Below are positions 1 to 60,032 of a stretch of DNA of 64,000 nucleotides, one piece after another. The first letter of the stretch is position 1. Every line of letters starts with the position of its first letter. The translations under genes and the position numbers were made by a program. The stretch is from Patescibacteria group bacterium. GTDB lineage: Bacteria; Patescibacteriota; Minisyncoccia; UBA6257; GWB1-50-10. The notes below the pieces were generated by a model. It had not been told where the DNA came from. It ran no database searches and saw nothing but the letters and a program-made list of their open reading frames with translations. The DNA lies in NCBI GenBank assembly GCA_024239035.1, contig JANBVK010000001.1, positions 423,062-487,061 of the forward strand. The letters run 5' to 3'.

Positions 1-270
1 CCGGGGGCGCCACAGATAAGAGAATGCTGACTGAAGAATTTTGGGCAGGCCTTGGCCGTTTATCTTCACAAACGCAAGAGCGATAGCCGCCCCGACTAAA
101 ATAGCGGTGACTATGAGCCCGAAGAAGAAGTTGAAAATATAAAAAGAAGCGAAACTCATTCCTCCTGCGGCGGCCAGATACAAAAACTGCGGCAGAGTTA
201 AGGGACCGATAATCTTTGGTTTCTGTTCAATGAATTGTGGAATTTGGAACGTAGCCATAGTGGTGGTCAT
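1..270 (-). CDS. PrgI/VirB3-like T4SS membrane protein (partial; 3' end beyond window)
   Basis: Minus-strand reading frame from ATG at 270. The translation begins MTTTMATFQIPQFIEQKPKIIGPLTLPQFLYLAAAGGMSFASFYIF, followed by a transmembrane segment. This N-terminal motif pattern matches the PrgI/VirB3 family as I recall it. The ATG overlaps the TGA stop of the upstream gene (ATGA), suggesting translational coupling. Confidence 0.5.
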   Translation of the reverse strand, partial: MTTTMATFQIPQFIEQKPKIIGPLTLPQFLYLAAAGGMSFASFYIFNFFFGLIVTAILVGAAIALAFVKINGQGLPKILQSAFSYLWRPR

Positions 271-1748
271 CGTAAATCTACTATATTCCCTTCAATAGTT
301 GCCTGCCCCGAGTTACGTCGAGGGAGTTGACCTTTTTTGATGTTACCCTCTTTTTTACCCAGAGGGGATTGTGATGCTTGCGGTTTCTTCTCTATTTGTG
401 TCTTTAATGCTGGTTTCTTTTTTTCTCTTAGTGGTAGAATTTTTTCTGAGGGTTGTGGTGTATTGTTTCGCTCGAGCGTCTCAAGATTAATTACCTCCTT
501 CTCAGGCTTACCAAAAGGGGAAAGCGGCGTTCGACTCTCGCTGTAATGCACCACCCTTTTCTTTTCTTTTTCTTCTTTCACCCGCCGTAGCCTTGGCGAA
601 GGCGGGGCGTCTAACTTCGCTTCCGCGCCGGGTACTTCAATTTTTACCTTAGTGGGCGACGTACCCGGAGTTTTTGGTTTCATAAAACTAAAAGGAAAGT
701 CAAAACCCTTAAATGGTTTCTTATCTTCTTCAACCATTGGTTTTTCTTCGTGAAGGACTAGGGGTTTACCCTGAGTAACATCGAAGGGTTTACCCTCTTC
801 TGTTTTCTGCGTTAATACGCTTCTATGTTCTTCGGTGGGTCCGCGTCTTTCCTCTTCTACTTTTTCTATTCTAATCTTCTGTTCTTTTAACCCTTCTTCG
901 CCGAATTTTTTCAGAGAGATTGTTTTTTCCCCAACAGTTGCTTCTTTAAGTGGTCCTGTAATGGGATCATATACTTTCCTGATGCCATTTCTTAATTGGG
1001 AAAATATCTTTTTACTCAACTCTTGACCAATAGTTGTCGCAATTCGACTATCAATATTTACTGCTTCTTGTATTTCTTTAGTGATATCATCAAGATGAAT
1101 AAAACCCATTAGGACTCGACTGCTGATCATTGCTATTGAACTAATTTTTTCTTCAGAGAAATGATTAGAACTCCCAATTCTAAAAATGTCTTCCGCGTTG
1201 GCGTAAGAGAAAATCTCATTCTTTAAATTCTGAGGCAGCGATTTATATCGTTGATTTACTTGTTTTGGGGGTAGTGCTCCAATAAGTTTAGTTAGACCGA
1301 CGCCTAATTCTTGAGCGAGATTAGCAATTAGAAAAGTATAAAGGGGGGGTCTCTTGGTTTTTAGCCAATTTAATTTTGCTTCTTCGGTTTCTCCTGGTAT
1401 TGCTTCTATAATCAACTTCTGGAACTCTTTTTGGGCTTCTGGATATAAATCAAGGTTTTTATAGATGTTAGCTAAAGCCTCTCCGCTTGCCGTCTCCAGA
1501 ACAGCTTGAGCAATAGTTGGGAGAACGTTGTTTCTCCACTCTTTCTCGCTCAAATTCGCTCGGAGCATCGGAAATCCTTTAATAATACCCACCCAGAAAG
1601 TATTCTCCCACTCTGCCGCCGGAATCGTTTTTAAAGAAGTCCTAAGACCCTCTCCAGCCTTTTGGTAGTTTTTGCTCTGGAGTTCATCCCAAATATCTTC
1701 TTTGAGAATCGGAAGCCAATAAAAGTTTTGAGTATTTATATTGGGCAT
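267..1748 (-). CDS. hypothetical cytoplasmic protein with a K/E/P-rich disordered C-terminus, in the T4SS-like operon
   Basis: 493-aa ORF. No transmembrane segment or signal peptide is visible. The C-terminal half is low-complexity and rich in Lys, Glu and Pro. It sits in a tightly packed minus-strand operon with the VirB6-like and PrgI-like genes. Confidence 0.45.
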   Translation of the reverse strand: MPNINTQNFYWLPILKEDIWDELQSKNYQKAGEGLRTSLKTIPAAEWENTFWVGIIKGFPMLRANLSEKEWRNNVLPTIAQAVLETASGEALANIYKNLDLYPEAQKEFQKLIIEAIPGETEEAKLNWLKTKRPPLYTFLIANLAQELGVGLTKLIGALPPKQVNQRYKSLPQNLKNEIFSYANAEDIFRIGSSNHFSEEKISSIAMISSRVLMGFIHLDDITKEIQEAVNIDSRIATTIGQELSKKIFSQLRNGIRKVYDPITGPLKEATVGEKTISLKKFGEEGLKEQKIRIEKVEEERRGPTEEHRSVLTQKTEEGKPFDVTQGKPLVLHEEKPMVEEDKKPFKGFDFPFSFMKPKTPGTSPTKVKIEVPGAEAKLDAPPSPRLRRVKEEKEKKRVVHYSESRTPLSPFGKPEKEVINLETLERNNTPQPSEKILPLREKKKPALKTQIEKKPQASQSPLGKKEGNIKKGQLPRRNSGQATIEGNIVDLR

Positions 1749-1758
1749 GATTTAGAAT

Positions 1759-3525
1759 TTATGGAGTTCCTCCTCCGCCTGTTCCGCCACCAGCCTGAGC
1801 TTGACGCCGGGCCTCTTCCGCAATCATTTCTTCAACTTGGGCGCCAAGTCCTGCGTCTGATCTCGTTTCTGGATAAGTTTCTCGCATTATTCCAGGTTCT
1901 CTAAAAGGTATTCTTGGGCCATAAGGCGTTCCAGTTTCCCCTCCCCGACCATAGAGAAAACTAAGACGAACTTCTTTTGTTAAAGCGTCCTGAGGTATTG
2001 AGCTTAAAGCCTCAATAGCAGCCTGTCTTACTTGAGCGTTATCACTCCTTGCGTGGAGGCTGAGAGATGCTACAATTTCTACTTTTTCAGGATTTGAGGC
2101 TGTAGTAAACCTTCTCGCATTTTCTTCGATTGACCTACCTCTTACCTCTTTTCTAGCTTGAGCCGTTAATGCTTCTCCAGCTAACCTCGCTTCGCTTAGT
2201 CCCCTTCCAACCTGTCTTAAAGGAGCAGTTAGGAAACGACCAGCTCTCCCGAATACTCTTCTTCCAAGGCCCCCAGTTTGACCTAGGTTTGCTCCAACCC
2301 CTTGTAATCCTGCTGTTAATTTTCTTCCCGTAACACCCCTCAAGGGGTACGTACCAGTCTGTAACGCTTTCCTCCCAGCCCACGCTCTAGTCCCCTTACC
2401 AGCTCTTGAAGCAATACCCATCGCTCCGGCCGAGCCTTTTATACTCATCTGGGTCGCTATCCAAAGCCCGCCAATTAGGATGCCAGCTAACGTTATCATT
2501 TGTGCTCCTTGAACCATAATGTTTTGAAGAGAACCTGAAAAAAACTCTCCTCCCCGAATGCCACCCTGCTCTTTACCTAACTTACCTAATTCCTCAACGC
2601 TTACGAGAGCAAGGTAAGTGAAGAACATGACTGCTGGCGCGAAGAATACCCATTCCATGAATTTACTCCACCATTTTGTGAATTGTCCAGCTAAGTTGGG
2701 AATGACCCAGAAAAGCCATACGATTGGAGATACGATTATAAGAAAAGTTAAGTAGAGATACCGTAACAAAAGCATAAAAGCAAAGGCGAGCAAGACGAAA
2801 GCCGCGATGAGAGTAAAGACAACAGTGAATATAAGACCTGTTATTGAGATAAGTACTGCGGTTCCAATTCCCCCTGTGAGCCCGCCTACTTCTTCTTCCG
2901 GATTTGGTGGAATAGGATCATCGCTCTCAATTAAAAACCGTTGAGGTCCGAATGCACTTGATAGGCTGCTGCTTAGATCTAACCCTAAAGCTCCCCCACC
3001 GGAGGTGACCCTCTCTGCGAAAACATTTGTTAGGACGTGGGAAAAATTAATGAAAACGCCGGCAATTGCGAAACTGAAGTTAACTAGAATAGCGGCAGCA
3101 ATGAGCTTAGGGAGAAGCGCTTTTACCCCATACTGCTCTCTTCGCAGTATGGTTGCAAAAGCTATTACGATAATGAAGAGTACGAAGCCGAGATTGGCAA
3201 TATCGCGGACAATCCTCCATCCAATATGAACAAGAGCATTACTATCATCTAACACCGTAAGATTGAGGCCGAGCATCAAGTTTACAAGGAAACCACTAAG
3301 TACAAAGAGTACTCCCCCAATAAAGTTTAGGAGGAACGCGGTGATTCTGAAGCCGAAGGCGAAGAAATCTGCTACGAGCGTATCACCAATCCCAGCTTGT
3401 GACACCTCAGGTACTAGAAAAAAACCAATTAATAAAAGCAATACAGCTCCTAGAAAGAATTTACTATTAAAGAATCTTGTGACTTGTTTGTTTTTAAGAT
3501 GCATCATGGAGATTGAGAAGGGCAA
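1759..3525 (-). CDS. TrbL/VirB6-like polytopic membrane protein with a Gly/Arg-rich C-terminal tail
   Basis: 588 aa. At least six hydrophobic helices are visible. The C-terminus is a long Gly/Ala/Arg-rich repeat region ending in GGGTGGGGTP. This architecture is typical of TrbL/VirB6 conjugation channel proteins. It is operonic with the PrgI-like gene. Confidence 0.5.
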   Translation of the reverse strand: MPFSISMMHLKNKQVTRFFNSKFFLGAVLLLLIGFFLVPEVSQAGIGDTLVADFFAFGFRITAFLLNFIGGVLFVLSGFLVNLMLGLNLTVLDDSNALVHIGWRIVRDIANLGFVLFIIVIAFATILRREQYGVKALLPKLIAAAILVNFSFAIAGVFINFSHVLTNVFAERVTSGGGALGLDLSSSLSSAFGPQRFLIESDDPIPPNPEEEVGGLTGGIGTAVLISITGLIFTVVFTLIAAFVLLAFAFMLLLRYLYLTFLIIVSPIVWLFWVIPNLAGQFTKWWSKFMEWVFFAPAVMFFTYLALVSVEELGKLGKEQGGIRGGEFFSGSLQNIMVQGAQMITLAGILIGGLWIATQMSIKGSAGAMGIASRAGKGTRAWAGRKALQTGTYPLRGVTGRKLTAGLQGVGANLGQTGGLGRRVFGRAGRFLTAPLRQVGRGLSEARLAGEALTAQARKEVRGRSIEENARRFTTASNPEKVEIVASLSLHARSDNAQVRQAAIEALSSIPQDALTKEVRLSFLYGRGGETGTPYGPRIPFREPGIMRETYPETRSDAGLGAQVEEMIAEEARRQAQAGGGTGGGGTP

Positions 3526-5009
3526 GCATACGTCACATTCAAAACATCCTCACATTGAACAAGCTCTTCTTTTATTCGCGTTAAGTCTGCCTGAACCCGC
3601 GTCTTATCAGCCTCTATGCCTGTTTGCATGCTCTGTATTATGCTGGCGAATTGCCGGGCGATGATTCTTGATGCTCCTGCTCTGAGTACTCCCTCAGCAT
3701 TGTCAAGAAGGGTCGATGAAGCATTTAGGGAGTTAGATAATTCAGTAATTTCTACAAGGGTTGGATTTTGGGTGCACGTTAAGCCGCGGCCAGTCTGGCA
3801 ATTAATTAGCATTTGAGTTGTCGATGAGAGTTCTGTATTCAAGTTAAGAGTTTCTTCTATGGTGGCCCGGGTAGCTCCGATTTCAGCGAGAGCTACCTGG
3901 GATTCTTGTTCCGCTTGTGTGTCTTCGATTGTGTTTTGGAGATCACTTTGTTGTTGTTGATACTCTATGCATGCTGCTTGGGCAGAGGAGCTCAATCGTG
4001 GGTCATTACAGTCAGTTTGTGGGGTGTTTCCTGAAGGCCCTAGATTTTGGACTCCTTTCACCCCCTCTGCAATGAGCCGGTTAATGGACGCGTCAAATAT
4101 GGCACCGATGTAGGCTGTGAGCTCTTGAGCATTTACTAGATAATCTATATCAGCATATAGAGATCTTTCTAAACCTTCAGCAATAGCAGTGCCCGGCGTG
4201 GTAACTCTATCTTGGTGGCAAACCCATTCAATATTATTAATACCCGTTACAAGTACGGGTGGCGGTTGGGACGGGTCAGGGTAGGGTCGGATGAAGCTGT
4301 CGCTGTTAAATGGATACAACTTAGAAACGGCCTTGCCGCTATCATCGGTACCTCTAGCTTCCCATTCAAGACACTGTTTTGTGCTCAAAAACCCCCTCCC
4401 CGAATTTATTTCTTGTCTTAGTGCGTCTGTTTTTTGGGCTTCTCGTCTCTCGACCTCGCTCTGTGCAAGGATTTCAATGCCCCACCTGTTATTTTGAGGT
4501 CTTAGAAGTTCTTGATAACCGATCCAGCCGCCGCTCGTAAAACTATCACGAAACCGCTCGACGTTACCGACAATATCGTCAAGCGTGCAGCTCACCCGTT
4601 GGGAAAAGACCGGCCGTTCAAGCTGAAACTGGATTCTAACGGGGCTAATACCTCTGCATAGATCGCCTAGTCCTATTTCCCGGGCTACATCACCAACTGC
4701 TGCCTGGCCTGCGTCTTCTAAGAAACCACCGAAGTCAGTTACAAATTTAGGATCACCGTCACCTTGAATCCAACCGATAGTTTCATCAACCAGCTGATCA
4801 AGCAATCGTTTTTTAAGCGCCTCGAGAGCCGACTTTAATGCAAGCTCTGCGGCTGATTTTGTAACATCCCATATCCAACCTACGACACTCTCCGGGTTTA
4901 TGGTAATATCAGCGATGCCAAGGAACGCTTTTGCTCGGAACGGATAAGTGGTTCCTGTAACGAGCAGAACGCTTATGAGCAAAGCAGAGATAATTTTTTT
5001 TGTTCTCAT
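3504..5009 (-). CDS. secreted protein of unknown function (signal peptide present)
   Basis: 501 aa. The N-terminus MRTKKIISALLISVLLVTGTTYPFRAKA looks like a SPase I signal peptide. Several Cys pairs are present. The coding region overlaps the VirB6-like gene by 22 nt. Confidence 0.45.
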   Translation of the reverse strand: MRTKKIISALLISVLLVTGTTYPFRAKAFLGIADITINPESVVGWIWDVTKSAAELALKSALEALKKRLLDQLVDETIGWIQGDGDPKFVTDFGGFLEDAGQAAVGDVAREIGLGDLCRGISPVRIQFQLERPVFSQRVSCTLDDIVGNVERFRDSFTSGGWIGYQELLRPQNNRWGIEILAQSEVERREAQKTDALRQEINSGRGFLSTKQCLEWEARGTDDSGKAVSKLYPFNSDSFIRPYPDPSQPPPVLVTGINNIEWVCHQDRVTTPGTAIAEGLERSLYADIDYLVNAQELTAYIGAIFDASINRLIAEGVKGVQNLGPSGNTPQTDCNDPRLSSSAQAACIEYQQQQSDLQNTIEDTQAEQESQVALAEIGATRATIEETLNLNTELSSTTQMLINCQTGRGLTCTQNPTLVEITELSNSLNASSTLLDNAEGVLRAGASRIIARQFASIIQSMQTGIEADKTRVQADLTRIKEELVQCEDVLNVTYACPSQSP

Positions 5010-5015
5010 ATTTGA

Positions 5016-5822
5016 CTAAGAAGTTAATTCTTCATAGCGTTGAATTAAAATAGATTGTAAATCGAGATCTTCTTGGATAATTTCGGGTAATGTTTGGATC
5101 ACTACATATGTTTTGAGCGGATCAGTTTGTATGTTCAAGACAGCCTGGTACATGAGCAATTTCTTGTACCACAAGTTTGTGTATTGGAGGTGGTATTCTT
5201 GCCACTGCGGAGGAGTCTCAAGTTCAAGCAAGCCGTTTATATAATCCGAGATATGACTGGTGAGATAATGTATAGTTTGTGGATTATTTTCTTTAAAAAA
5301 CTCCTCCAAAGCGATATTAATATCTTTCTTGAACCCGCTAAAATTTTCTCTTAAAAGCGAATCGATCGCCTCCATATAAGTGATTTGATTTTCAGACGAA
5401 TTATCGCCTGAGATTCTAATATCTTTAAGGTTGAATTTAGGAAAATCAAAATCCTGTACAATTTTTTCTTGGAGTACTTGTTGTAAGTCAGGAGTTGCGA
5501 TGTTGAGATTGCGTTCCTCAACTCGTCCACTGCCTCGCTCTACGTTTTTTAAGAGCTCTTTGGCGTAAGCCTGAGCGACCAACTCAGTGAGGTTATCAGT
5601 TCCCTGGTTTTCACTTCCTCCCCCAAGACCTCCGTATACTCCGAAAATATTAGCTTGAGATTGAGGTGTTGATTTAAATTGGAGGCTTGGATTGGTATTC
5701 TCCTTAAATTTTGATACGGTCAAAAAATCACCGAAAGGCTTAGAGTCGCTATTGGTGACGAGTAAGGAAACTCCTATTCCAAACAGAATGACAGTAAAAG
5801 CGATGATTTTTATTTTACTCAT
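5016..5822 (-). CDS. N-terminally membrane-anchored hypothetical protein, first gene of the T4SS-like operon
   Basis: 268 aa. A single N-terminal hydrophobic helix (IIAFTVILFGIGVSLLV) is followed by a soluble domain. Confidence 0.4.
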   Translation of the reverse strand: MSKIKIIAFTVILFGIGVSLLVTNSDSKPFGDFLTVSKFKENTNPSLQFKSTPQSQANIFGVYGGLGGGSENQGTDNLTELVAQAYAKELLKNVERGSGRVEERNLNIATPDLQQVLQEKIVQDFDFPKFNLKDIRISGDNSSENQITYMEAIDSLLRENFSGFKKDINIALEEFFKENNPQTIHYLTSHISDYINGLLELETPPQWQEYHLQYTNLWYKKLLMYQAVLNIQTDPLKTYVVIQTLPEIIQEDLDLQSILIQRYEELTS

Positions 5823-5946
5823 AATATTTATGTAGCACAGAACAAGCGAACTGATTGTTACACGCTTCTTGCTATAATTATATCAAAGTTTGAACTATTT
5901 TTTTGATCTTTGAGCGCTCGTCAGTCTGTAGATTGCTCAGTTACTA

Positions 5947-7544: not shown

Positions 7545-8609
7545 GTGATATGTTACTATTCCAATATTAATATGGTTTTCAGTCATATAAAACCTCTTTT
7601 GAGAGGTTTCCCTAAAGCGACAAGTTTGTGGTCGCTAGTTTTTATTCTGATTATTGTTGCGGCTGGTCGTTTTGCTTATTCAAAGACAGAAAGCTTTGTT
7701 AACCGTGAAGAGAGTGGTAGTTTCAGTTTCGGCGGCCCGGCTGGAAATTCAGAAGGAAATCTTGGATTTTTTTCGGGATCACTCACTTCATTGAACGGTG
7801 AATATTCAGATGATGAGGAGAAATTTCTAATATTTGACGGAGTAGTTGTTTTAGGGACCTCTCATCCTTTAAGTAATCTAATACCAACGAGAGATGGTCT
7901 GCAGAAGTATAAAGTTCAGTCGGGCGATACTCTCTCCGGCATAGCTGCTCAGTTTGGATTAACGCTACAAACTTTAAGATGGGCCAATCCCGGGCTTCGC
8001 TCGGCGATTAGGATCGGTGAAGAACTCACCATCTTGCCGGTTTCAGGGATTCTGCACGCGGTTAAGGAGGATGACTCTATCGAGTCCGTTGCTAGTCGTT
8101 ATCAGATAGACCCTAATCTCATAAGAGAGTATAACCCAGATTACCAAAAGACACTTGATTCCCCAGGTGAATTGTTAGTTTTACCCAACGCCAAACCGCT
8201 TGGGAATATAGGTTACGCCCGTTACATCCAAAATCTTCCTAATCTGAAAAGCTATTTTGTATTGCCGGCTCGGGGATGGAACTGGGCTCGACTCCATGAT
8301 TATAATGCGGTGGACATCGCCGATCAGTGTGGTAAGCCGATCTATGCTGCTGCGGAAGGATTGGTTATTGAAGAATCATCCGAAGGATATTGGAACCAAG
8401 GTCACGGCAACTACGTATTTCTGGAACACCCAAACGGCACCAAGACGCGCTACTCTCATACGTCTGAAAATTTAGTTAATGTTGGTGATTATGTTTCCCA
8501 AGGTGATCACGTCGCCTTAATTGGAAATACCGGCAACACTCACGGCCCCACCGGTTGTCATCTGCACTTTGAGACGCACGGCGCTAAGAATCCTTTTGCA
8601 ATAAAGTAA
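7545..8609 (+). CDS. LysM-domain M23 family metallopeptidase
   Basis: LysM segment SGDTLSGIAAQFGLTLQTLRWANPGL is present. The M23 motifs HxxxD and HLHFE (GNTGNTHGPTGCHLHFETH) are present. An N-terminal transmembrane segment is visible. Confidence 0.8.
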   Translation: MICYYSNINMVFSHIKPLLRGFPKATSLWSLVFILIIVAAGRFAYSKTESFVNREESGSFSFGGPAGNSEGNLGFFSGSLTSLNGEYSDDEEKFLIFDGVVVLGTSHPLSNLIPTRDGLQKYKVQSGDTLSGIAAQFGLTLQTLRWANPGLRSAIRIGEELTILPVSGILHAVKEDDSIESVASRYQIDPNLIREYNPDYQKTLDSPGELLVLPNAKPLGNIGYARYIQNLPNLKSYFVLPARGWNWARLHDYNAVDIADQCGKPIYAAAEGLVIEESSEGYWNQGHGNYVFLEHPNGTKTRYSHTSENLVNVGDYVSQGDHVALIGNTGNTHGPTGCHLHFETHGAKNPFAIK

Positions 8610-33992: not shown

Positions 33993-34064
33993 CGGGCATG
34001 TAGCTCAATGGCAGAGCGCCAAGCTTATACCTTGGTGGTTCCTGGTTCGAATCCAGGCATGCCC
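33993..34064 (+). tRNA. tRNA-Ile(TAT) (anticodon UAU, an AUA decoder)
   Basis: Acceptor stem gggcatg/catgccc. D-arm gctc-aatggca-gagc. Anticodon stem ccaag/cttgg with loop ctTATac. T-arm cctgg-ttcgaat-ccagg. Confidence 0.65.
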
Positions 34065-34084
34065 ACCCTAATAAAATAATTAGA

Positions 34085-34190: not shown

Positions 34191-34262
34191 GGGCGCTTAG
34201 CTCAGTGGTAGAGCGACTCGTTTACACCGAGTAGGCCCGGGGTTCGATCCCTCGAGCGCCCA
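34191..34262 (+). tRNA. tRNA-Val(TAC)
   Basis: Acceptor stem gggcgct/agcgccc. D-arm gctc-agtggta-gagc. Anticodon stem actcg/cgagt with loop ttTACac. T-arm cgggg-ttcgatc-cctcg. Confidence 0.8.
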
Positions 34263-34301
34263 CACTTCGACTCGCATCCGCTCGCTCAGTGCGAGAGCAC
34301 C

Positions 34302-35195
34302 TTATTTTCTTCTGCGAGCGTGAAACGCTTCGTGTATGTCCCGGAGGTCTTTATTGGTGAGATGGGTGTAAACTTGAGTAGTTGAGATGTTCGCGTGGCC
34401 TAGAAGTTCCTGCACCGAGCGAAGGTCGGCACCGTTTATAAGGAGATCGGTTGCGAATGAATGGCGAAGCTGGTGAACATGCACCTTTTTGGGAATACCG
34501 GCTTGTCGTCCTCGAAGGTCTACTGCTCTTTGCACTGCCCGTGGTGTAATGCGGTCGAGCGCACCACCACTTCTTGAGAGACTTATAAATAATGCTTCAT
34601 TAGCATCTTCTCGTTTGTCTAAATATTTCTTGAGCGCTCGCTTTGTACCAACGGATAAAAAAACAACCCTTAACTTGTCTCCCTTACCGCGTACGGAAAT
34701 TTCCCCGCGACTCATATCTATTTTACGGTTTAAACTACAGAGTTCTGAGAGACGAAGACCGGTTGAAAATAAAGTTTCTAAAATTGCTCTGTCGCGAAGT
34801 GAACGTAGATCATTGCCCTTTGGAGCTTGGAGCAATCGCTCAAGCTCGTTGTAATCCAACGTTTCGATGTCCCTCCTCACAACTTTTGGAAGCTCAATAG
34901 TTTCAGGCGGTAATACCTTAATACCGCGTTTCACAAGATATTTTAAGAAGTTTCTGAGAGCAATTACGTAGTAACTTTGAGTGATTTTTTTAAGTTTACC
35001 CCGGCCGAGCAATATGCGGAAATCTCGAATCACTTCTTGAGTGATTTCTTTAGGAGAACGAATGTGGGATTTTTCTATAAATACACGAAGATATTGTTCG
35101 TAATTCTCCCGTGTTTTTGGGGAGCGGTTTTTTTCAATTTCTAGGTAATCAAGATAATCTTTTAATAATTTTTCTATTTCAGACATTAATTTCAT
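34302..35195 (-). CDS. tyrosine recombinase XerC/XerD family
   Basis: The C-terminal catalytic region HQLRHSFATDLLINGADLRSVQELLGHANISTTQVYTHL carries the R..HxxR..Y residues. The probable start is MKLMSEIEKLL (35195) rather than the 35399 extension. It lies 40 bp from the tRNA-Val 3' end. Confidence 0.8.
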   Translation of the reverse strand: MKLMSEIEKLLKDYLDYLEIEKNRSPKTRENYEQYLRVFIEKSHIRSPKEITQEVIRDFRILLGRGKLKKITQSYYVIALRNFLKYLVKRGIKVLPPETIELPKVVRRDIETLDYNELERLLQAPKGNDLRSLRDRAILETLFSTGLRLSELCSLNRKIDMSRGEISVRGKGDKLRVVFLSVGTKRALKKYLDKREDANEALFISLSRSGGALDRITPRAVQRAVDLRGRQAGIPKKVHVHQLRHSFATDLLINGADLRSVQELLGHANISTTQVYTHLTNKDLRDIHEAFHARRRK

Positions 35196-35348
35196 TATAT
35201 CAGAAGTGTCGTAAAAGGAGGATTGTTGCGTCAAAAATTCTTTTGACGCAAAATCCCGCGGAGATCTTACAACGCCTTGAAAAATGCCATAAAATCTCCA
35301 TCTTTGACATTTTTTCGCTTTTATAGTAGCCTTGTATTTAACATCTAA

Positions 35349-35615
35349 ATGCTCTCTAAAAGAAAGAAACAGTTTGCTATTAAGGAATACCAAAAACATA
35401 AGACTGATACGGGATCCGCGGAAGTACAGGTTGGGCTTTTGACGAAGCGGATTAAAGAATTAGCGGATCATCTAAAAAAGCACCCGAAAGATCACCATTC
35501 TCGACGGGGACTTTTGATAATGGTGGGTAAACGTAGAAAGTTTTTACAATACCTTCGTCGGGAAAATGAAAAAGTTTACGATAAACTGGCGAAGAAACTA
35601 AAATTAGAGGTTTAA
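35349..35615 (+). CDS. rpsO: 30S ribosomal protein S15
   Basis: 88 aa. [48 protein letters not shown] matches S15. Confidence 0.85.
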
Positions 35616-49790: not shown

Positions 49791-51608
49791 ATGCCCAGAG
49801 GAGAAACTAGAGATAAAACCCATAGTAGGAAACCTAAAAAAAGCAGATCAAGGCCATCGGCTAAGGCTCTGCGTTTTGTGACACCTCAGTGGACCAAAAG
49901 GCTTTTATGGATAGTTGTTACTATTCTTATTCTTGTTGTTCTAGGAACTGCAATCTTCTTTGTTTCTTATTACAGAAGCAGTTCAATTGGTGTTGTTATT
50001 GAAGTTAATGCTCCGGATAAGATTTATCGCGGCGTCCCATTTGAGGTTGATGTCAGTATAGATAATCAAACTGATAATATTATTACTCAAGCAGAACTTA
50101 CTCTGAGTCCCACCAATGGTATCGTGAACCTAAGAGGTTTTAATGGTCGGGGGATAATAAGCGATTCTATTGGGGATATGGGTAGTGGCAGCTTGACTAG
50201 AAAAACATATAGATTTTTAGCAACGGGAGAGATCGGTTCTTCTGGAGAGATCGCTTTTAGTTTGTCTTATTTTTCAGCCGGCAGAACCCGCTTTGAAGTT
50301 AATGAAGTTAAAAAGGTTAACGTCAGCGACTTAGCCATTGAGATTGAGGTTGAAAAACCTGATCAGATTTTGCCTGGCTCCACTTTCGAATTGGATATTG
50401 GTTATCAAAATGTTTCTAATTTCGATTTCTCTGAAGCAGTCTTGGAGGTGAAGTACCCATCACCGTTTAAGTTTATTTCCTCGAGCTTGACTCCGGATTC
50501 ACTGAATAATTATTGGCGGCTGGGAGAACTTAGAAGTGGCTCGAGTGGTAATATTCAGGTTAGGGGGACTCTCGAAGGCGCCGCAGGGTCTCCATTTGTC
50601 ATACCGATAGTTTTCTCAGCTAAATTCTTGGGTCAGGACTACCCCGTAGTTGAACAAGAAGTGGAACTGGCCATTGCTCCTTCACCGATCAACGTCCAAA
50701 CCTTTATTAACCGTCGAACCGATTACGTAGCGAGAATCGGTGATCAGTTGACTTACACTATTTTGTATGAGAACTCGAGTGGGATTGCTTTAGCTGACGT
50801 CGTGATAAAAACTGAGCTTATCGGTGAATTGTTTGATTTTACGACTCTGGAGGTCAACGCTGATACCAATTTGTCGGCCCGCACCGTTACCTGGGACGTT
50901 TCTAAAATTCCAGCCTTAAGGTTGCTTGATCCGGGCGCATCGGGGGAGGTTAGTTTAAGAGTTAAGCTGAAAAATCAATTTCCAATTAATCGCCTAAACG
51001 ATAAGAATTTTAATCTCCGTTTTAGCACTAAGATTAGTTCGCCATCCGTGCCGTATTATCTCCAAGCTCCCAAAACGGAAGCCATTGCCAGTCTTGAGGC
51101 CAAAGTTGCCGGATTGATTTTGGTTGATGTAAGAGGGTTTTACCGGGATGCTCTATCCGGCATATTAAACAGCGGTCTTATCCCGCCGAAAGTTAATCTA
51201 CCAACCCAGTACACGGTTCATTGGGTTATTCGTAATTACTCTACGGACGTTAAAGATGTTTCTTTGCGTACCGTACTTCCATTAGGCGTTAGATGGACGG
51301 GTATAGTAAAGAGCAATATAGACTCTGTCCCTTTGTATAATGAAGAGACTCGCGAAATTATCTGGGCTATTGAAACGATTAGAGCAACTAAGGGAGTTCT
51401 AGACGATCCAATCGAGACAGTCTTTCAGGTTGAAGCTACGCCTAGCGTCACGGACATTGGCAAATTTCAGCAGCTTACAAACGAAACTACCTTAAGGGCA
51501 GTCGATGAATTTACCGGTCTGGAATTGTTTAGCTCAGACGTTGCTCTAAATACATCTTTACCTGATGATATAACCATAGGTCAAAACGGGGGACGGATCG
51601 TACCATGA
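49791..51608 (+). CDS. large membrane-anchored surface protein of unknown function (beta-rich repeats)
   Basis: Basic N-terminus, one transmembrane helix, then about 540 aa rich in beta-strand-like segments with no motifs I recognise. Confidence 0.35.
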   Translation: MPRGETRDKTHSRKPKKSRSRPSAKALRFVTPQWTKRLLWIVVTILILVVLGTAIFFVSYYRSSSIGVVIEVNAPDKIYRGVPFEVDVSIDNQTDNIITQAELTLSPTNGIVNLRGFNGRGIISDSIGDMGSGSLTRKTYRFLATGEIGSSGEIAFSLSYFSAGRTRFEVNEVKKVNVSDLAIEIEVEKPDQILPGSTFELDIGYQNVSNFDFSEAVLEVKYPSPFKFISSSLTPDSLNNYWRLGELRSGSSGNIQVRGTLEGAAGSPFVIPIVFSAKFLGQDYPVVEQEVELAIAPSPINVQTFINRRTDYVARIGDQLTYTILYENSSGIALADVVIKTELIGELFDFTTLEVNADTNLSARTVTWDVSKIPALRLLDPGASGEVSLRVKLKNQFPINRLNDKNFNLRFSTKISSPSVPYYLQAPKTEAIASLEAKVAGLILVDVRGFYRDALSGILNSGLIPPKVNLPTQYTVHWVIRNYSTDVKDVSLRTVLPLGVRWTGIVKSNIDSVPLYNEETREIIWAIETIRATKGVLDDPIETVFQVEATPSVTDIGKFQQLTNETTLRAVDEFTGLELFSSDVALNTSLPDDITIGQNGGRIVP

Positions 51609-56373: not shown

Positions 56374-57150
56374 TTGATGGAAGCGGACTTTCTCATTAAA
56401 ATACTTACTATGACAGAAGAATGGTGGAAAAAGTTTTTCGGGGAGGGTTATATAAAAGAATGGGAAGAGGCGGGGATGTTTAGATATACGCGGCGGGAAG
56501 TCAACTTCTTAGAGAAAGTAATTCCACTCCGGAAAAAGGATGAGATTTTGGACCTGTGCTGCGGGCATGGTAGGCACGCGATTGAACTTGCGCGGAGAGG
56601 ATATAAAGTTACAGGACTCGATTTTTCTTTGTACGCGTTAGGGATAGCGAGGAGAGAGGCGAAACGGAGAAATCTTATAGTCAGTTTTGTGCGGGGCGAT
56701 GCACGTAATTTCAAGTTTCGGAAAAAGTTTGATGTCATTATTAACATGTTTACCGCATTTGGGTACGGTAGCAGAGAAGATGACCGAAAGATTATTCGGA
56801 ACGTGAGCCGGAGCTTGAGGAAGGAAGGCAAGTTTTTTATAGATTTGCAGAGCTTGCCGTGGCTCTGGAGAAATTTTAAACCAGTGAGGCGTGAACGAGT
56901 CGGAAAACTGAGGATTGTAGATAAGAGAACCTATGATTTCCTCGAAGGTGTTGTGCGCAGCATACGTATAGTATCCGATGGGACACGTAAAAGGATCAGC
57001 CGTACGCAGACTCGCAGCTATACTCTGGCAGAACTAGAAAACCTTCTTGTAGAAGAGGGGTTGAAAGTAGTTAAGTTTTTCGGGTCTTATAAGGGCCAGC
57101 CCTTCGGTTTTAATACTAAGCGGATGCTAGTTGTTGCAAAAAAAATATGA
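56374..57150 (+). CDS. class I SAM-dependent methyltransferase
   Basis: SAM-binding motif ILDLCCGHGRHAIELARRGYKVTGLDFS is present. Acidic motif DVIINMF is present. Confidence 0.75.
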   Translation: MMEADFLIKILTMTEEWWKKFFGEGYIKEWEEAGMFRYTRREVNFLEKVIPLRKKDEILDLCCGHGRHAIELARRGYKVTGLDFSLYALGIARREAKRRNLIVSFVRGDARNFKFRKKFDVIINMFTAFGYGSREDDRKIIRNVSRSLRKEGKFFIDLQSLPWLWRNFKPVRRERVGKLRIVDKRTYDFLEGVVRSIRIVSDGTRKRISRTQTRSYTLAELENLLVEEGLKVVKFFGSYKGQPFGFNTKRMLVVAKKI

Positions 57151-60032
57151 AATACGATTTTCAGAAAATAGAACGCAGGTGGCAGAAATTCTGGCGTGAG
57201 AAGAAAGTTTACGAGCCCCTTAACATGACTCGGGGCAAGCCAAACCTAAAGTTATCCACCAGCCGGCAGAAACCTTTCTATAACTTGATGATGTTCCCTT
57301 ATCCGTCGGCCGAAGGGTTGCATGTGGGAAACATGTATGCTTTTACCGGCGGTGACGTTTACGGCAGATTCAAGCGGATGCAGGGGTTCAATGTATTTGA
57401 ACCAATGGGGCTTGATGGTTTCGGGATTCACTCAGAGAACTATGCTTTGAAAATCGGCGTCCATCCGATGAAACAGGCTGAAATTTCCGAGAAGAGATTT
57501 TACAAACAACTTGAGATGATCGGTAATGGTTTTGCCTGGGATGAAAGACTTGAAACTTATGACCCCAAATATTACCGCTGGACTCAGTGGATTTTTGTCC
57601 AACTATTTAAGCATGGCCTCGCCTACCGTAAAAAGGCACCAGTTAACTGGTGTCCGAGTTGTAAAACCGTGCTCGCTGATGAGCAGGTTATCACGGGCAG
57701 ATGTGAACGGTGCTCGCACTTAGTTATTAAAAAAGAGCTTGAGCAATGGTTTTTTAAAATTACAAAGTATGCTGACAAACTGCTTAAAAATTTAGACAAA
57801 ATTGATTGGTCAGAACGGGTAAAAATTGCCCAGCGAAATTGGATCGGCCGTTCAGAGGGAGCAGAGATTGAATTTAGAATTAAGAATCATGAGTCAAGCA
57901 TAAAAGTTTTCACTACCCGCCCGGATACACTTTTCGGTGCGACTTATATGGTTCTAGCTCCGGAGCATGAGTTGATTGAGAATCTAGAATCCAGCATTAA
58001 TAACTTAGAGGAAGTTAAAAAATACGTTAAAAAAGCCGGAAGTGAAAGCGATGAAGAACGGATTGCCGAAGACAGGGAAAAATCAGGGGTGGAGTTGAAA
58101 GGCGTAAAAGCAGTTAACCCGGCAACAAAAGAAGAAATTCCGATATGGGTTGCGGATTATGTGTTGGGTCATGTTGGTACCGGCGCAATTATGGCTGTGC
58201 CGGCACACGATGAGCGCGACCTTGAGTTTGCGATAAAATATGACTTACCGGTTCGTCAAGTTGTAGAAGCAGAATATACGCAAATGACCGAGCCCGGTAT
58301 GGTAAAAAAAGAATTACCATTCGTTGAGCGAGATGGAATTATTGCTATTATCAAACATTGGTCCGAAGAAAAGTATATTGGATTGAAGTGGAAATCAGTA
58401 GCATGGGGTACTTGGGTTACGGGTGGTATTGAAAAGGACCAGACGCCGGAGCAGGCCGCTCGCGCGGAGGTGTTGGAAGAAGTTGGATATCGCAATCTTA
58501 GATTTGTAAAAGATTTGGGTATTGTGCATGGTAAGTTTTACCACGTGCCCAAGAAAGAAAATCGTTGGGTGCATGCCCACTGTCTTTATTTTGAGCTTGA
58601 AGACGATGCTCGCGACGAAGTATCAGAGAAAGAAAAAGCGATTCACGAATTAACTTGGCTTTCAAAAGAAGAAGTTGAAAGGTTTCTTACCCCCAGTACT
58701 CATCTATGGGCGTGGCGAAAATTATGCGGCGAGTTAGTGTATATTGGAAATGGTTATCTTAAAAATTCCGGCAAATTTGATGGTATCGCATCGGAGAAAG
58801 CTAAATGGGAAATTACAAAATTCGTCGGCGGAAAAAAAGAGATTCATTATCGTATCCGCGACTGGTTGATTTCTCGTCAGCGTTACTGGGGTGTGCCGAT
58901 CCCTATGATTTATTGCGAACGGTGTGACTGGCAGCCTGTTCCGGAAAAAGATTTACCTGTGAAACTCCCTTTCATTAAAGACTTCCGACCAAAAGGGAAG
59001 GGCCAATCTCCTCTTGCATCAGAAAAATCTTTTTATGAAACAAAATGCCCTAAATGTGGCGGCGCGGCACGGCGGGAAACGGATGTGTCGGATACTTTCT
59101 TGGATTCCGCCTGGTATTATCTTCGTTACCCTTCGACTCGCTCTGCTCACTCAGGGCAAGTCCCGTGGGACCCGGAAATTACCAAGAAGTGGTTACCGGT
59201 TGATATGTATATTGGCGGCGCGGAGCACTCGGTATTGCATCTTTTATATTCTCGGTTTTTAGCAATGGCGTTTAATGATTGGGGGCTGGTTCATTTTAAG
59301 GACGGAGAACCGTTTACTGTATTCCGTGCTCACGGTCTTTTGATCAGTGAAGGAAAGAAAATGTCAAAGTCAAAAGGGAACATTGTAAATCCGGATTTCT
59401 ATGTTAAGAAATTTGGTGCTGACGCGTTTCGGATGTATCTTATGTTTTTGGCGCCCTTTGAGCAGGGTGGTGATTTTCGCGATGCAGGAATTTTAGGGAT
59501 TACGCGGTTTTTGGAAAGAGTTTGGAAATTATTTAATAATGATAAAAAAGACAAGAAGGACATAGACAAAAACCTAGAAAAATCATTACATCAATCAATT
59601 AAGAAAGTAACAGAAGATATTGAAAATTTACATTATAATACTGCAATCAGTACGTTAATGATTTTATTAAGTAAAATGGAAGAGCAAGGAGATAAATTGT
59701 CGACTGGCATATATCAAACATTCCTGAAGCTTCTTGCTCCCTTCGCGCCGCACATTACAGAAGAATTGTGGAGCCAATTAGGGAGCAAAAAATCAATTCA
59801 TATAGAACCTTGGCCCGCATACAACCCAAAGCTTATAGAAGAAGAAACCTTTAAGCTGATAGTGCAAGTGAATGGTAAGATGAGAGATACGATAACGGCA
59901 GATACCGGAATTTCCCAAAAAGAAGCCGAGGCAATTGCCTTATCTTTAGAAAACATAAAGAGGCACATAGGGAATAAAAAAAGTAAAAAGATTATTTTTG
60001 TGAAAGATAGATTAATTAATTTTGTGATTTAA
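57147..60032 (+). CDS. leuS: leucyl-tRNA synthetase carrying a Nudix-fold insertion
   Basis: HIGH-region MFPYPSAEGLHVGN is present. CP1 editing motifs TTRPDTLFGAT and GTGAIMAVPAHDERD are present. KMSKS is present. An extra block of about 140 aa (about 58300..58700) lies between CP1 and RIRDW. It resembles MutT, but the leucyl-specific domain is absent. Confidence 0.85.
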   Translation: MKYDFQKIERRWQKFWREKKVYEPLNMTRGKPNLKLSTSRQKPFYNLMMFPYPSAEGLHVGNMYAFTGGDVYGRFKRMQGFNVFEPMGLDGFGIHSENYALKIGVHPMKQAEISEKRFYKQLEMIGNGFAWDERLETYDPKYYRWTQWIFVQLFKHGLAYRKKAPVNWCPSCKTVLADEQVITGRCERCSHLVIKKELEQWFFKITKYADKLLKNLDKIDWSERVKIAQRNWIGRSEGAEIEFRIKNHESSIKVFTTRPDTLFGATYMVLAPEHELIENLESSINNLEEVKKYVKKAGSESDEERIAEDREKSGVELKGVKAVNPATKEEIPIWVADYVLGHVGTGAIMAVPAHDERDLEFAIKYDLPVRQVVEAEYTQMTEPGMVKKELPFVERDGIIAIIKHWSEEKYIGLKWKSVAWGTWVTGGIEKDQTPEQAARAEVLEEVGYRNLRFVKDLGIVHGKFYHVPKKENRWVHAHCLYFELEDDARDEVSEKEKAIHELTWLSKEEVERFLTPSTHLWAWRKLCGELVYIGNGYLKNSGKFDGIASEKAKWEITKFVGGKKEIHYRIRDWLISRQRYWGVPIPMIYCERCDWQPVPEKDLPVKLPFIKDFRPKGKGQSPLASEKSFYETKCPKCGGAARRETDVSDTFLDSAWYYLRYPSTRSAHSGQVPWDPEITKKWLPVDMYIGGAEHSVLHLLYSRFLAMAFNDWGLVHFKDGEPFTVFRAHGLLISEGKKMSKSKGNIVNPDFYVKKFGADAFRMYLMFLAPFEQGGDFRDAGILGITRFLERVWKLFNNDKKDKKDIDKNLEKSLHQSIKKVTEDIENLHYNTAISTLMILLSKMEEQGDKLSTGIYQTFLKLLAPFAPHITEELWSQLGSKKSIHIEPWPAYNPKLIEEETFKLIVQVNGKMRDTITADTGISQKEAEAIALSLENIKRHIGNKKSKKIIFVKDRLINFVI

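Follow-up and report, generated by a model that had tools for sequence, protein, structure and literature searches.

Genes at the start of the window

The stretch of DNA analysed here (the window) comprises 64,000 nucleotides (nt) of a contig from a Patescibacteria group bacterium (GCA_024239035.1, JANBVK010000001.1, positions 423,062 to 487,061). At positions 1-5822 of the window, five tightly packed genes are located on the minus strand. A first reading of the letters, called the original prediction below, had described them as a five-gene operon related to type IV secretion systems (T4SS). The open reading frames (ORFs) were present at the coordinates claimed, with the fifth starting at 270 and leaving the window. 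Hydropathy and composition also bore out the protein features described, namely an anchor in the first product, a signal and cysteines in the second, a polytopic topology with a Gly/Arg-rich tail in the third, and a Lys/Glu/Pro-rich half in the fourth. The features are listed below in transcription order, with protein sizes in amino acids (aa).

5823..5946, no strand: intergenic region of 124 nt, presumed promoter region, between the operon and a divergent Rce1-like gene
5016..5822, minus strand: gene 1, 268-aa anchored protein (ORF list and transmembrane prediction)
3504..5009, minus strand: gene 2, 501-aa secreted protein with 10 cysteines (ORF list)
1759..3507, minus strand: gene 3, VirB6/TrbL-like polytopic membrane protein, 582 aa from the ATG at 3507
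267..1748, minus strand: gene 4, 493-aa protein without a transmembrane segment (ORF list and hydropathy)
1..270, minus strand: gene 5, PrgI/VirB3-family membrane protein, first 90 of 168 aa, cut by the window edge

Genes 1 and 2 are 6 nt apart and genes 3 and 4 are 10 nt apart, and the stop codon of the 493-aa gene overlaps the start of the PrgI gene as ATGA. Three starts are available for gene 3: ATG at 3507 (582 aa), TTG at 3525 (588 aa), and TTG at 3441 (560 aa), the last being the public gene call. Because the ATG at 3507 forms an ATGA with the stop codon of the 501-aa gene (3504-3506), and because the signal peptide stays normal from there, it is more plausible as the start than the TTG at 3525. 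Two overlaps had been reported for the operon; the ATGA between the 493-aa and PrgI genes stands, and the overlap of 22 nt exists only if TTG 3525 is the start.

The 124-nt region at 5823..5946 is the sole sizeable gap by the operon. A scan for promoter and terminator consensus sequences yielded nothing above chance; for the sigma-70 consensus, it gave no sites in this region and overall fewer sites than in shuffled sequences. The promoter is therefore placed in this region by position only.

The cluster beyond the window

The source contig is a 729,382-bp scaffold of a patescibacterial metagenome-assembled genome, and a gene table of the 21.5-kb locus was compiled with 10 kb on either side. 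The operon was found to be part of a cluster of about 11 genes. Past coordinate 1, the genes follow in transcription order:

PrgI, 168 aa
TraC-like/TrsD-like protein, 215 aa
VirB4-type ATPase, 584 aa
small membrane protein, 157 aa, three transmembrane segments
secreted protein, 234 aa
Cys-rich protein with pilin-like topology, 318 aa
N-anchored protein, 368 aa

The cluster is followed by jag, yidC, and rpmH, all three on the other strand, and then by dnaA and dnaN; dnaA, yidC, and rpmH are replication-origin genes. Beside the recognisable T4SS genes, the cluster contains four to five conserved accessory genes. On the 5' side of the operon, the Rce1-like gene, which is divergent, is followed by ksgA and by a LysM/M23 peptidase gene that is likewise divergent.

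Conservation across related genomes

An alignment of the VirB6 family was used to scan one genome per GTDB species, which yielded 80 loci; counts out of 81 include the source locus. All ORFs of these loci were searched by iterated hidden Markov models with each cluster protein as the query. The loci were labelled mostly Jorgensenbacteria, Brennerbacteria, Harrisonbacteria, and Paceibacterota. The recurring gene order was M23(-), ksgA, 268, 501, VirB6, 493, PrgI, TrsD, VirB4, small membrane protein, 234, 318/368, jag(-), yidC(-), and dnaA. The portion ksgA-268-501-VirB6-493-PrgI-TrsD-VirB4 was found in essentially all 80 related species genomes, and gene junctions were short in most loci. Homologues of the individual proteins were recovered as follows:

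268-aa protein: 70 of 81 loci, directly upstream of the 501-aa gene
501-aa protein: 79 of 81 loci
493-aa protein: 73 of 81 loci, between VirB6 and PrgI
PrgI: 67 of 81 loci
TrsD: 66 of 81 loci
VirB4: 66 of 81 loci
234-aa protein: 57 of 81 loci
318-aa protein: 53 of 81 loci
368-aa protein: 48 of 81 loci

Missing homologues belonged mostly to loci at contig ends. A homologue of the 501-aa protein with 33% identity was located in an identical gene context, and the synteny was also observed in one locus (L084) beside the 80 species-level genomes. The possibility that the five window ORFs arose by chance was ruled out by homologues of all five in the same order, present in 58-79 of the 80 other species-level genomes.

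PrgI, TrsD, and VirB4

Of the five window proteins, PrgI alone was matched when they were scanned directly against Pfam and NCBIfam. The match to PF12666 reached 35.6 bits with the window fragment and 34.7 bits with the full 168 aa, both above the Pfam cut-off of 27, and the PrgI assignment of the original prediction was thus confirmed.

A VirB4-type ATPase had also been predicted beyond coordinate 1, and the 584-aa VirB4 was found there on the source contig, approximately 1.2 kb past that coordinate; the place had been called upstream, and in the direction of transcription it is downstream. The protein contains P-loop_TraG (7.6e-29), AAA_10, and DUF87 domains, with intact Walker A (KSGSGKS) and Walker B (LLIIDEA) motifs. 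It is 27% identical to PrgJ of pCF10 (E 2e-43) over 557 aligned positions, corresponding to PrgJ residues 228-772.

The 215-aa TrsD-like gene directly upstream of virB4 carries a precomputed PF26593 TraC-like annotation. Its product matched TraC_F_IV at positions 43-173 (E 4e-4), and VirB4 covered positions 277-374. Because the two proteins match complementary parts of TraC_F_IV, their sequences indicate that VirB4 is split into a TrsD-like N-domain gene and the 584-aa ATPase, in agreement with the published account of TrsD (PMC12102498). No significant match between the TrsD-like protein and PrgJ was obtained by BLASTP. The TrsD-like gene is taken to supply the equivalent of the first ~227 PrgJ residues, which are missing from VirB4. 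Host lineage and gene context suggest that this VirB4 belongs to the Patescibacteria clade nested in the mating-pair-formation (MPF) class MPF_FATA.

The VirB6-like protein

The product of gene 3 consists of a signal or transmembrane segment, six further hydrophobic segments, and a tail rich in Gly, Arg, and Ala. The transmembrane domain spans approximately residues 1-390, followed by the tail of 200 aa, in which a faint HEAT-like stretch reached an E-value of 0.05 only.

An AlphaFold (AF2) model of the membrane domain was helical, with a predicted local distance difference test score (pLDDT) of 84.2 and a predicted template-modelling score (pTM) of 0.78. When this model was compared with 350,542 PDB chains by Foldseek, ranks 1-7 were all R388 TrwI/VirB6 chains (E 2.6e-3 to 0.1). 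Their probabilities were 0.94-1.00 (five at 1.00), and their target-normalised template-modelling scores were ~0.39-0.49 (best five, 0.45-0.49). The matches after rank 7 were unrelated (E>0.2). The family profile yielded nothing useful against PDB sequences.

At the family level, PF04610 TrbL matched 5 of 48 members (best 6.2e-6). A precomputed PF19590 TrbL_3 annotation, marked weak for the gene 3 product, was present in most of the 120 homologues listed. Gene 3 was accepted as VirB6 on the basis of fold, family-level profile matches, and position. The TrbL/VirB6-like identity proposed for it was borne out, indirectly but well, by the fold match and the family Pfam matches. A separate hmmscan run with another copy of Pfam detected TrbL_3 neither in the gene 3 product nor in any of 48 relatives; the two resources probably differ in version or filtering, which would account for the disagreement.

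Three partner families without annotation

The 268-, 501-, and 493-aa families showed no consistent Pfam family, only scattered single-member matches. They are conserved partners of the cluster that published surveys left unannotated, and this is what is new here.

A single hydrophobic helix at the N-terminus anchors the 268-aa protein, and the remainder is predicted to be extracellular. Among 59 family members, the sole Pfam match was to DUF5854 in one protein (E 0.0073), and no PDB sequence was matched. An hhalign comparison of the family with PrgL, which is VirB8-like, was not significant (E 0.21).

The 501-aa protein has a signal-like N-terminus, a strongly conserved core at approximately residues 60-330, and a C-terminal three-helix bundle that is variable. 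Six cysteines are nearly invariant in the core of the family. When 1.84 billion cluster representatives were searched with the family profile, 5,530 clusters were recovered at E<=1e-3 and 2,448 at E<=1e-30. The same family yielded coiled-coil noise alone in a profile search of PDB sequences. The gene holds the position of virB5 relative to virB6, and no sequence similarity to VirB5 was detected in an hhalign comparison with TrwJ (E 0.25). A resemblance of fold to VirB5 was weak; it appeared among many generic helix bundles and involved the variable part, not the conserved core. The 501-aa protein is a candidate extracellular partner of VirB6. Paralogy of the 268- and 501-aa proteins was considered and rejected, as the similarity they share is the signal peptide only.

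The 493-aa protein has no hydrophobic segment, and its C-terminal half is disordered and rich in Lys, Glu, and Pro. Family conservation runs from about residue 160 on and includes a conserved domain at residues ~165-262 and the motifs PFILHxE, FSxPFGFF, KRVVHYSExRTPLxPF, and a C-terminal EGNxxDL. Neither a consistent Pfam family (two single-member matches) nor a PDB sequence match was found. Taken together, the domain of ~100 residues and the four short motifs, which lie in the disordered region and at the C-terminus, suggest a role in docking or as an adaptor. Residues 1-155 were present in 10-20% of family members, representing a lineage-specific N-terminal extension in this genome and its closest relatives.

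The pilin-domain protein and the small membrane protein

Outside the window, the 318-aa gene, three genes after virB4, encodes a protein with a signal peptide and two hydrophobic helices. Its own match to PF18895 was weak (E 0.0077); 45 of 46 orthologues matched the family (best 6.3e-11). By these matches, the 318-aa protein is identified as a VirB2-type pilin-domain protein.

In 18 of 46 related genomes, the orthologues of this protein (L001:15641-16597) carried a C-terminal extension with HxxGxxxD, followed in 12 of those 18 by HxH, a pattern of the zinc site of VanY/LAS-type peptidoglycan peptidases. Loci bearing the extension include L013, L012, L064, L017, L040, L014, L025, L045, L046, L056, L033, and L035. 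One pilin-domain orthologue matched Pfam VanY at 1.3e-7, and the copy of the source genome is without the extension.

The small membrane protein (L001:14439-14912) had counterparts in about 50 related loci, with 100-190 aa and 1-4 predicted transmembrane segments, always between VirB4 and the 234-aa gene. The family is too divergent for phmmer, and residues E43, K93, P119, P125, and N136 are near-invariant. No consistent Pfam family was found (one member matched DUF6249, E 0.003). The idea that it is a paralogue of the pilin was rejected, as no similarity to the pilin-domain family was observed.

Gene neighbourhood and search for conjugation functions

Neither the genes of the 21.5-kb locus nor the 20 largest ORFs elsewhere in the window included a relaxase or coupling ATPase, and no integrase was present within the 21.5-kb locus. 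An origin of transfer (oriT), relaxase, or type IV coupling protein (T4CP) linked to MPF genes was found neither within 10 kb on either side nor in the 64-kb window. The original prediction had noted no relaxase or plasmid genes nearby, and these results agree. The 20 other ORFs were housekeeping genes or had no mobility-related domains by Pfam. The housekeeping set includes FtsK, GyrA, PNPase, H+-PPase, FtsH, aminoacyl-tRNA synthetases, SHMT, and NusA, and the 20 also include a DUF11 surface protein and two ORFs without a Pfam match. The guanine-plus-cytosine (GC) fraction of the cluster was 0.426-0.436, compared with 0.429 for the window.

One neighbouring gene may assist the system:

7545..8609, plus strand: LysM + Peptidase_M23 cell-wall hydrolase, 354 aa (Pfam annotation)

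This gene is divergent from ksgA; in 50 of 81 loci, it was found at the same place upstream of ksgA and the T4SS cluster and in the same orientation. In Paceibacteria, VirB1-like proteins that carry M23/LysM domains were reported in association with virB4 (PMC12102498). The hydrolase is a possible VirB1-type helper that opens the cell wall, with uncertain membership in the system.

Three further genes of the window were observed. An XerC/D-type tyrosine recombinase, which has a SAM-like N-domain (34302-35399, minus strand), lies 29 kb from the T4SS cluster; it is the sole recombinase of the window and adjoins tRNA-Ile (33994-34067, anticodon TAT) and tRNA-Val (34191-34263). A leucyl-tRNA synthetase of 961 aa (57147-60032, plus strand) contains a NUDIX domain, PF00293, at residues 419-511 (E 2.9e-9; 37.5 bits, cut-off 21.1), flanked by the editing domain and the second half of the catalytic core. 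A DUF11-repeat protein of 605 aa (49791-51608, plus strand) is probably located at the cell surface and, by position, is unrelated to the T4SS cluster.

Comparison with known systems

VirB4 was reported in 2,417 of 3,035 Patescibacteria genomes, in a clade nested in MPF_FATA (PMC12102498, Quinonero-Coronel et al. 2025). The same study described TrsD, PrgI, VirB6, and VirB2-like pilins as its companions, a location near dnaA, ksgA, and rpmH, and the usual lack of a relaxase (PMC12102498). The present cluster resembles this type in having VirB4 with a separate TrsD-like gene, PrgI/VirB3, VirB6, and a VirB2-type pilin gene, in containing no relaxase or T4CP, and in its chromosomal location by dnaA, rpmH, and ksgA. 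It also contains the 268-, 501-, and 493-aa families that the surveys of patescibacterial T4SS left without annotation.

In Southlakia epibionticum, transposon sequencing (Tn-seq) showed the T4SS genes to be essential to growth as an epibiont (Wang et al. 2023, PMC10633639). Southlakia (SEML1_0004-0019) belongs to Saccharimonadia, whereas the source genome represents a Jorgensenbacteria/Paceibacteria-type lineage. One VirB6 gene with a Gly/Arg-rich tail is present here, compared with two giant VirB6-like proteins with ARM-repeat tails in Southlakia, and one pilin-domain gene is present here, compared with an array of six. Unlike in Southlakia, no lysozyme or peptidase follows VirB4, and the M23/LysM gene is located upstream instead.

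The cluster shares with the MPF_FATA system of the Enterococcus plasmid pCF10 (PrgH, PrgI, PrgJ, PrgK, PrgL) the order VirB6, VirB3, VirB4, a PrgI-family member, a VirB4 that is 27% identical to PrgJ, and a monoderm architecture without VirB7, VirB9, or VirB10. Parts of pCF10 that were not detected here are a relaxase, a T4CP, the adhesin PrgB, the PrgK hydrolase, and the VirB8-like PrgL. In further contrast, VirB4 is without the first ~227 residues of PrgJ, and the cluster is chromosomal and vertically conserved. The VirB2-type pilin domain sets it apart from Gram-positive systems, and a 2025 review described patescibacterial T4SSs as unique among monoderm T4SSs (PMC12857230). Compared with the VirB5-VirB6 stalk of R388 (MPF_T; PDB 7o3v, 8rt9; reference sequence NC_028464), the 501-aa protein is twice the size of VirB5, and the outer-membrane core components of the R388 VirB system are not present here.

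Discussion

The data suggest, with a probability of approximately 0.88, that positions 1-5822 hold the promoter-proximal half of a chromosomal, Patescibacteria-type T4SS of about 11 genes, derived from MPF_FATA, which serves as a surface conduit or pilus for host contact and not for conjugation. The locus fits the published Patescibacteria T4SS on every feature compared, which bears out the T4SS reading of the original prediction; it is an already described type of system, and no new system is present. Since the cluster contains no relaxase, oriT, or coupling protein, a conduit or pilus for host contact, working in export or uptake, is the likeliest function, not plasmid conjugation. Host interaction rather than conjugation had been favoured in the original prediction, and it is the published view (PMC12102498, PMC10633639, PMC12857230).

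Several points weigh against this interpretation. A relaxase or coupling protein could sit elsewhere in the 729-kb genome, outside the regions covered. The direct Pfam scan of the window VirB6-like protein returned no TrbL match, and the family profile of gene 3 was not significantly similar to PrgH (hhalign E 0.12) or TrwI (E 0.29); both comparisons aligned the same conserved helix. The clade membership proposed for VirB4 follows from context. Function in this lineage is deduced from homology and from Southlakia, and for the 268-, 501-, and 493-aa proteins only position and predicted location point to the roles proposed. These three have no evident counterpart in Southlakia when compared by size and annotation.

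A device importing DNA or nucleotides, like ComB of H. pylori or archaeal Ced, could feed a cell that is deficient in nucleotide synthesis, as Patescibacteria are (PMC10633639, PMC12857230). T4SS-derived importers exist, the cluster is without a relaxase or T4CP, as ComB is, and T4SS genes of the ABY1 class are located near comF, recG, and radA (PMC12102498). In Southlakia, however, deletion of comEC ended competence and viability was kept, whereas the T4SS is essential (PMC12857230). No competence genes adjoin the present cluster, the sequence gives no direction of transport, and an importer appears unlikely.

The 268-, 501-, and 493-aa genes might instead be unrelated passengers among the T4SS genes, which their lack of a consistent Pfam family, a meaningful PDB sequence match, or an evident Southlakia counterpart would allow. 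Their position and orientation were nevertheless kept in 70, 79, and 73 of the 81 loci, with absences mostly at contig ends. They adjoin VirB6 and PrgI closely or with overlaps, and their predicted locations (anchored outside, secreted, and cytoplasmic) suit an envelope-spanning machine, so that we consider passengers very improbable. Least credible of all is the view that these genes form the mating-pair-formation module of a plasmid remnant or an integrated conjugative element and transfer DNA to other cells, as VirB4, PrgI, and VirB6 are homologous to Gram-positive conjugation parts (PrgJ, PrgI, and PrgH of pCF10) but the core position (ksgA ... jag, yidC, dnaA) is shared by ~80 species, the GC of the cluster is the same as that of the genome, no relaxase, coupling ATPase, or integrase is present in the 21.5-kb locus, the Xer-like recombinase lies 29 kb off, and relaxases occur in just 103 of 3,035 Patescibacteria genomes, seldom by virB4 (PMC12102498).

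A mechanism for the host-contact conduit can be proposed from homology and from one genetically studied relative. VirB3 would tether VirB4 hexamers at the membrane, and VirB6 would form a membrane platform or channel. The 501-aa secreted and 268-aa anchored proteins would make up the extracellular, wall-spanning part atop VirB6, and VirB4 would polymerise or insert the pilin-domain protein. The 493-aa cytoplasmic protein may dock on the ATPase or channel via its short motifs, as an adaptor. A more specific version is tentative, and we would sooner doubt it than adopt it: the 501- and 268-aa proteins would form an extracellular stalk or tip on VirB6, equivalent to VirB5, that carries the VirB2-type pilin through the wall, and the 493-aa adaptor would replace the coupling protein.

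If this version is true, a T4SS that an obligate episymbiont relies on would have, in these proteins, its first defined lineage-specific structural subunits. No type IV system other than the patescibacterial T4SS has been reported as essential for its own bacterium to grow. The present locus is a clean and complete example from a Jorgensenbacteria/Paceibacteria-type lineage and adds nothing categorically new. Within it, the three unannotated families, fixed in the cluster across ~80 species, provide targets for studying how ultra-small episymbionts connect to their hosts.

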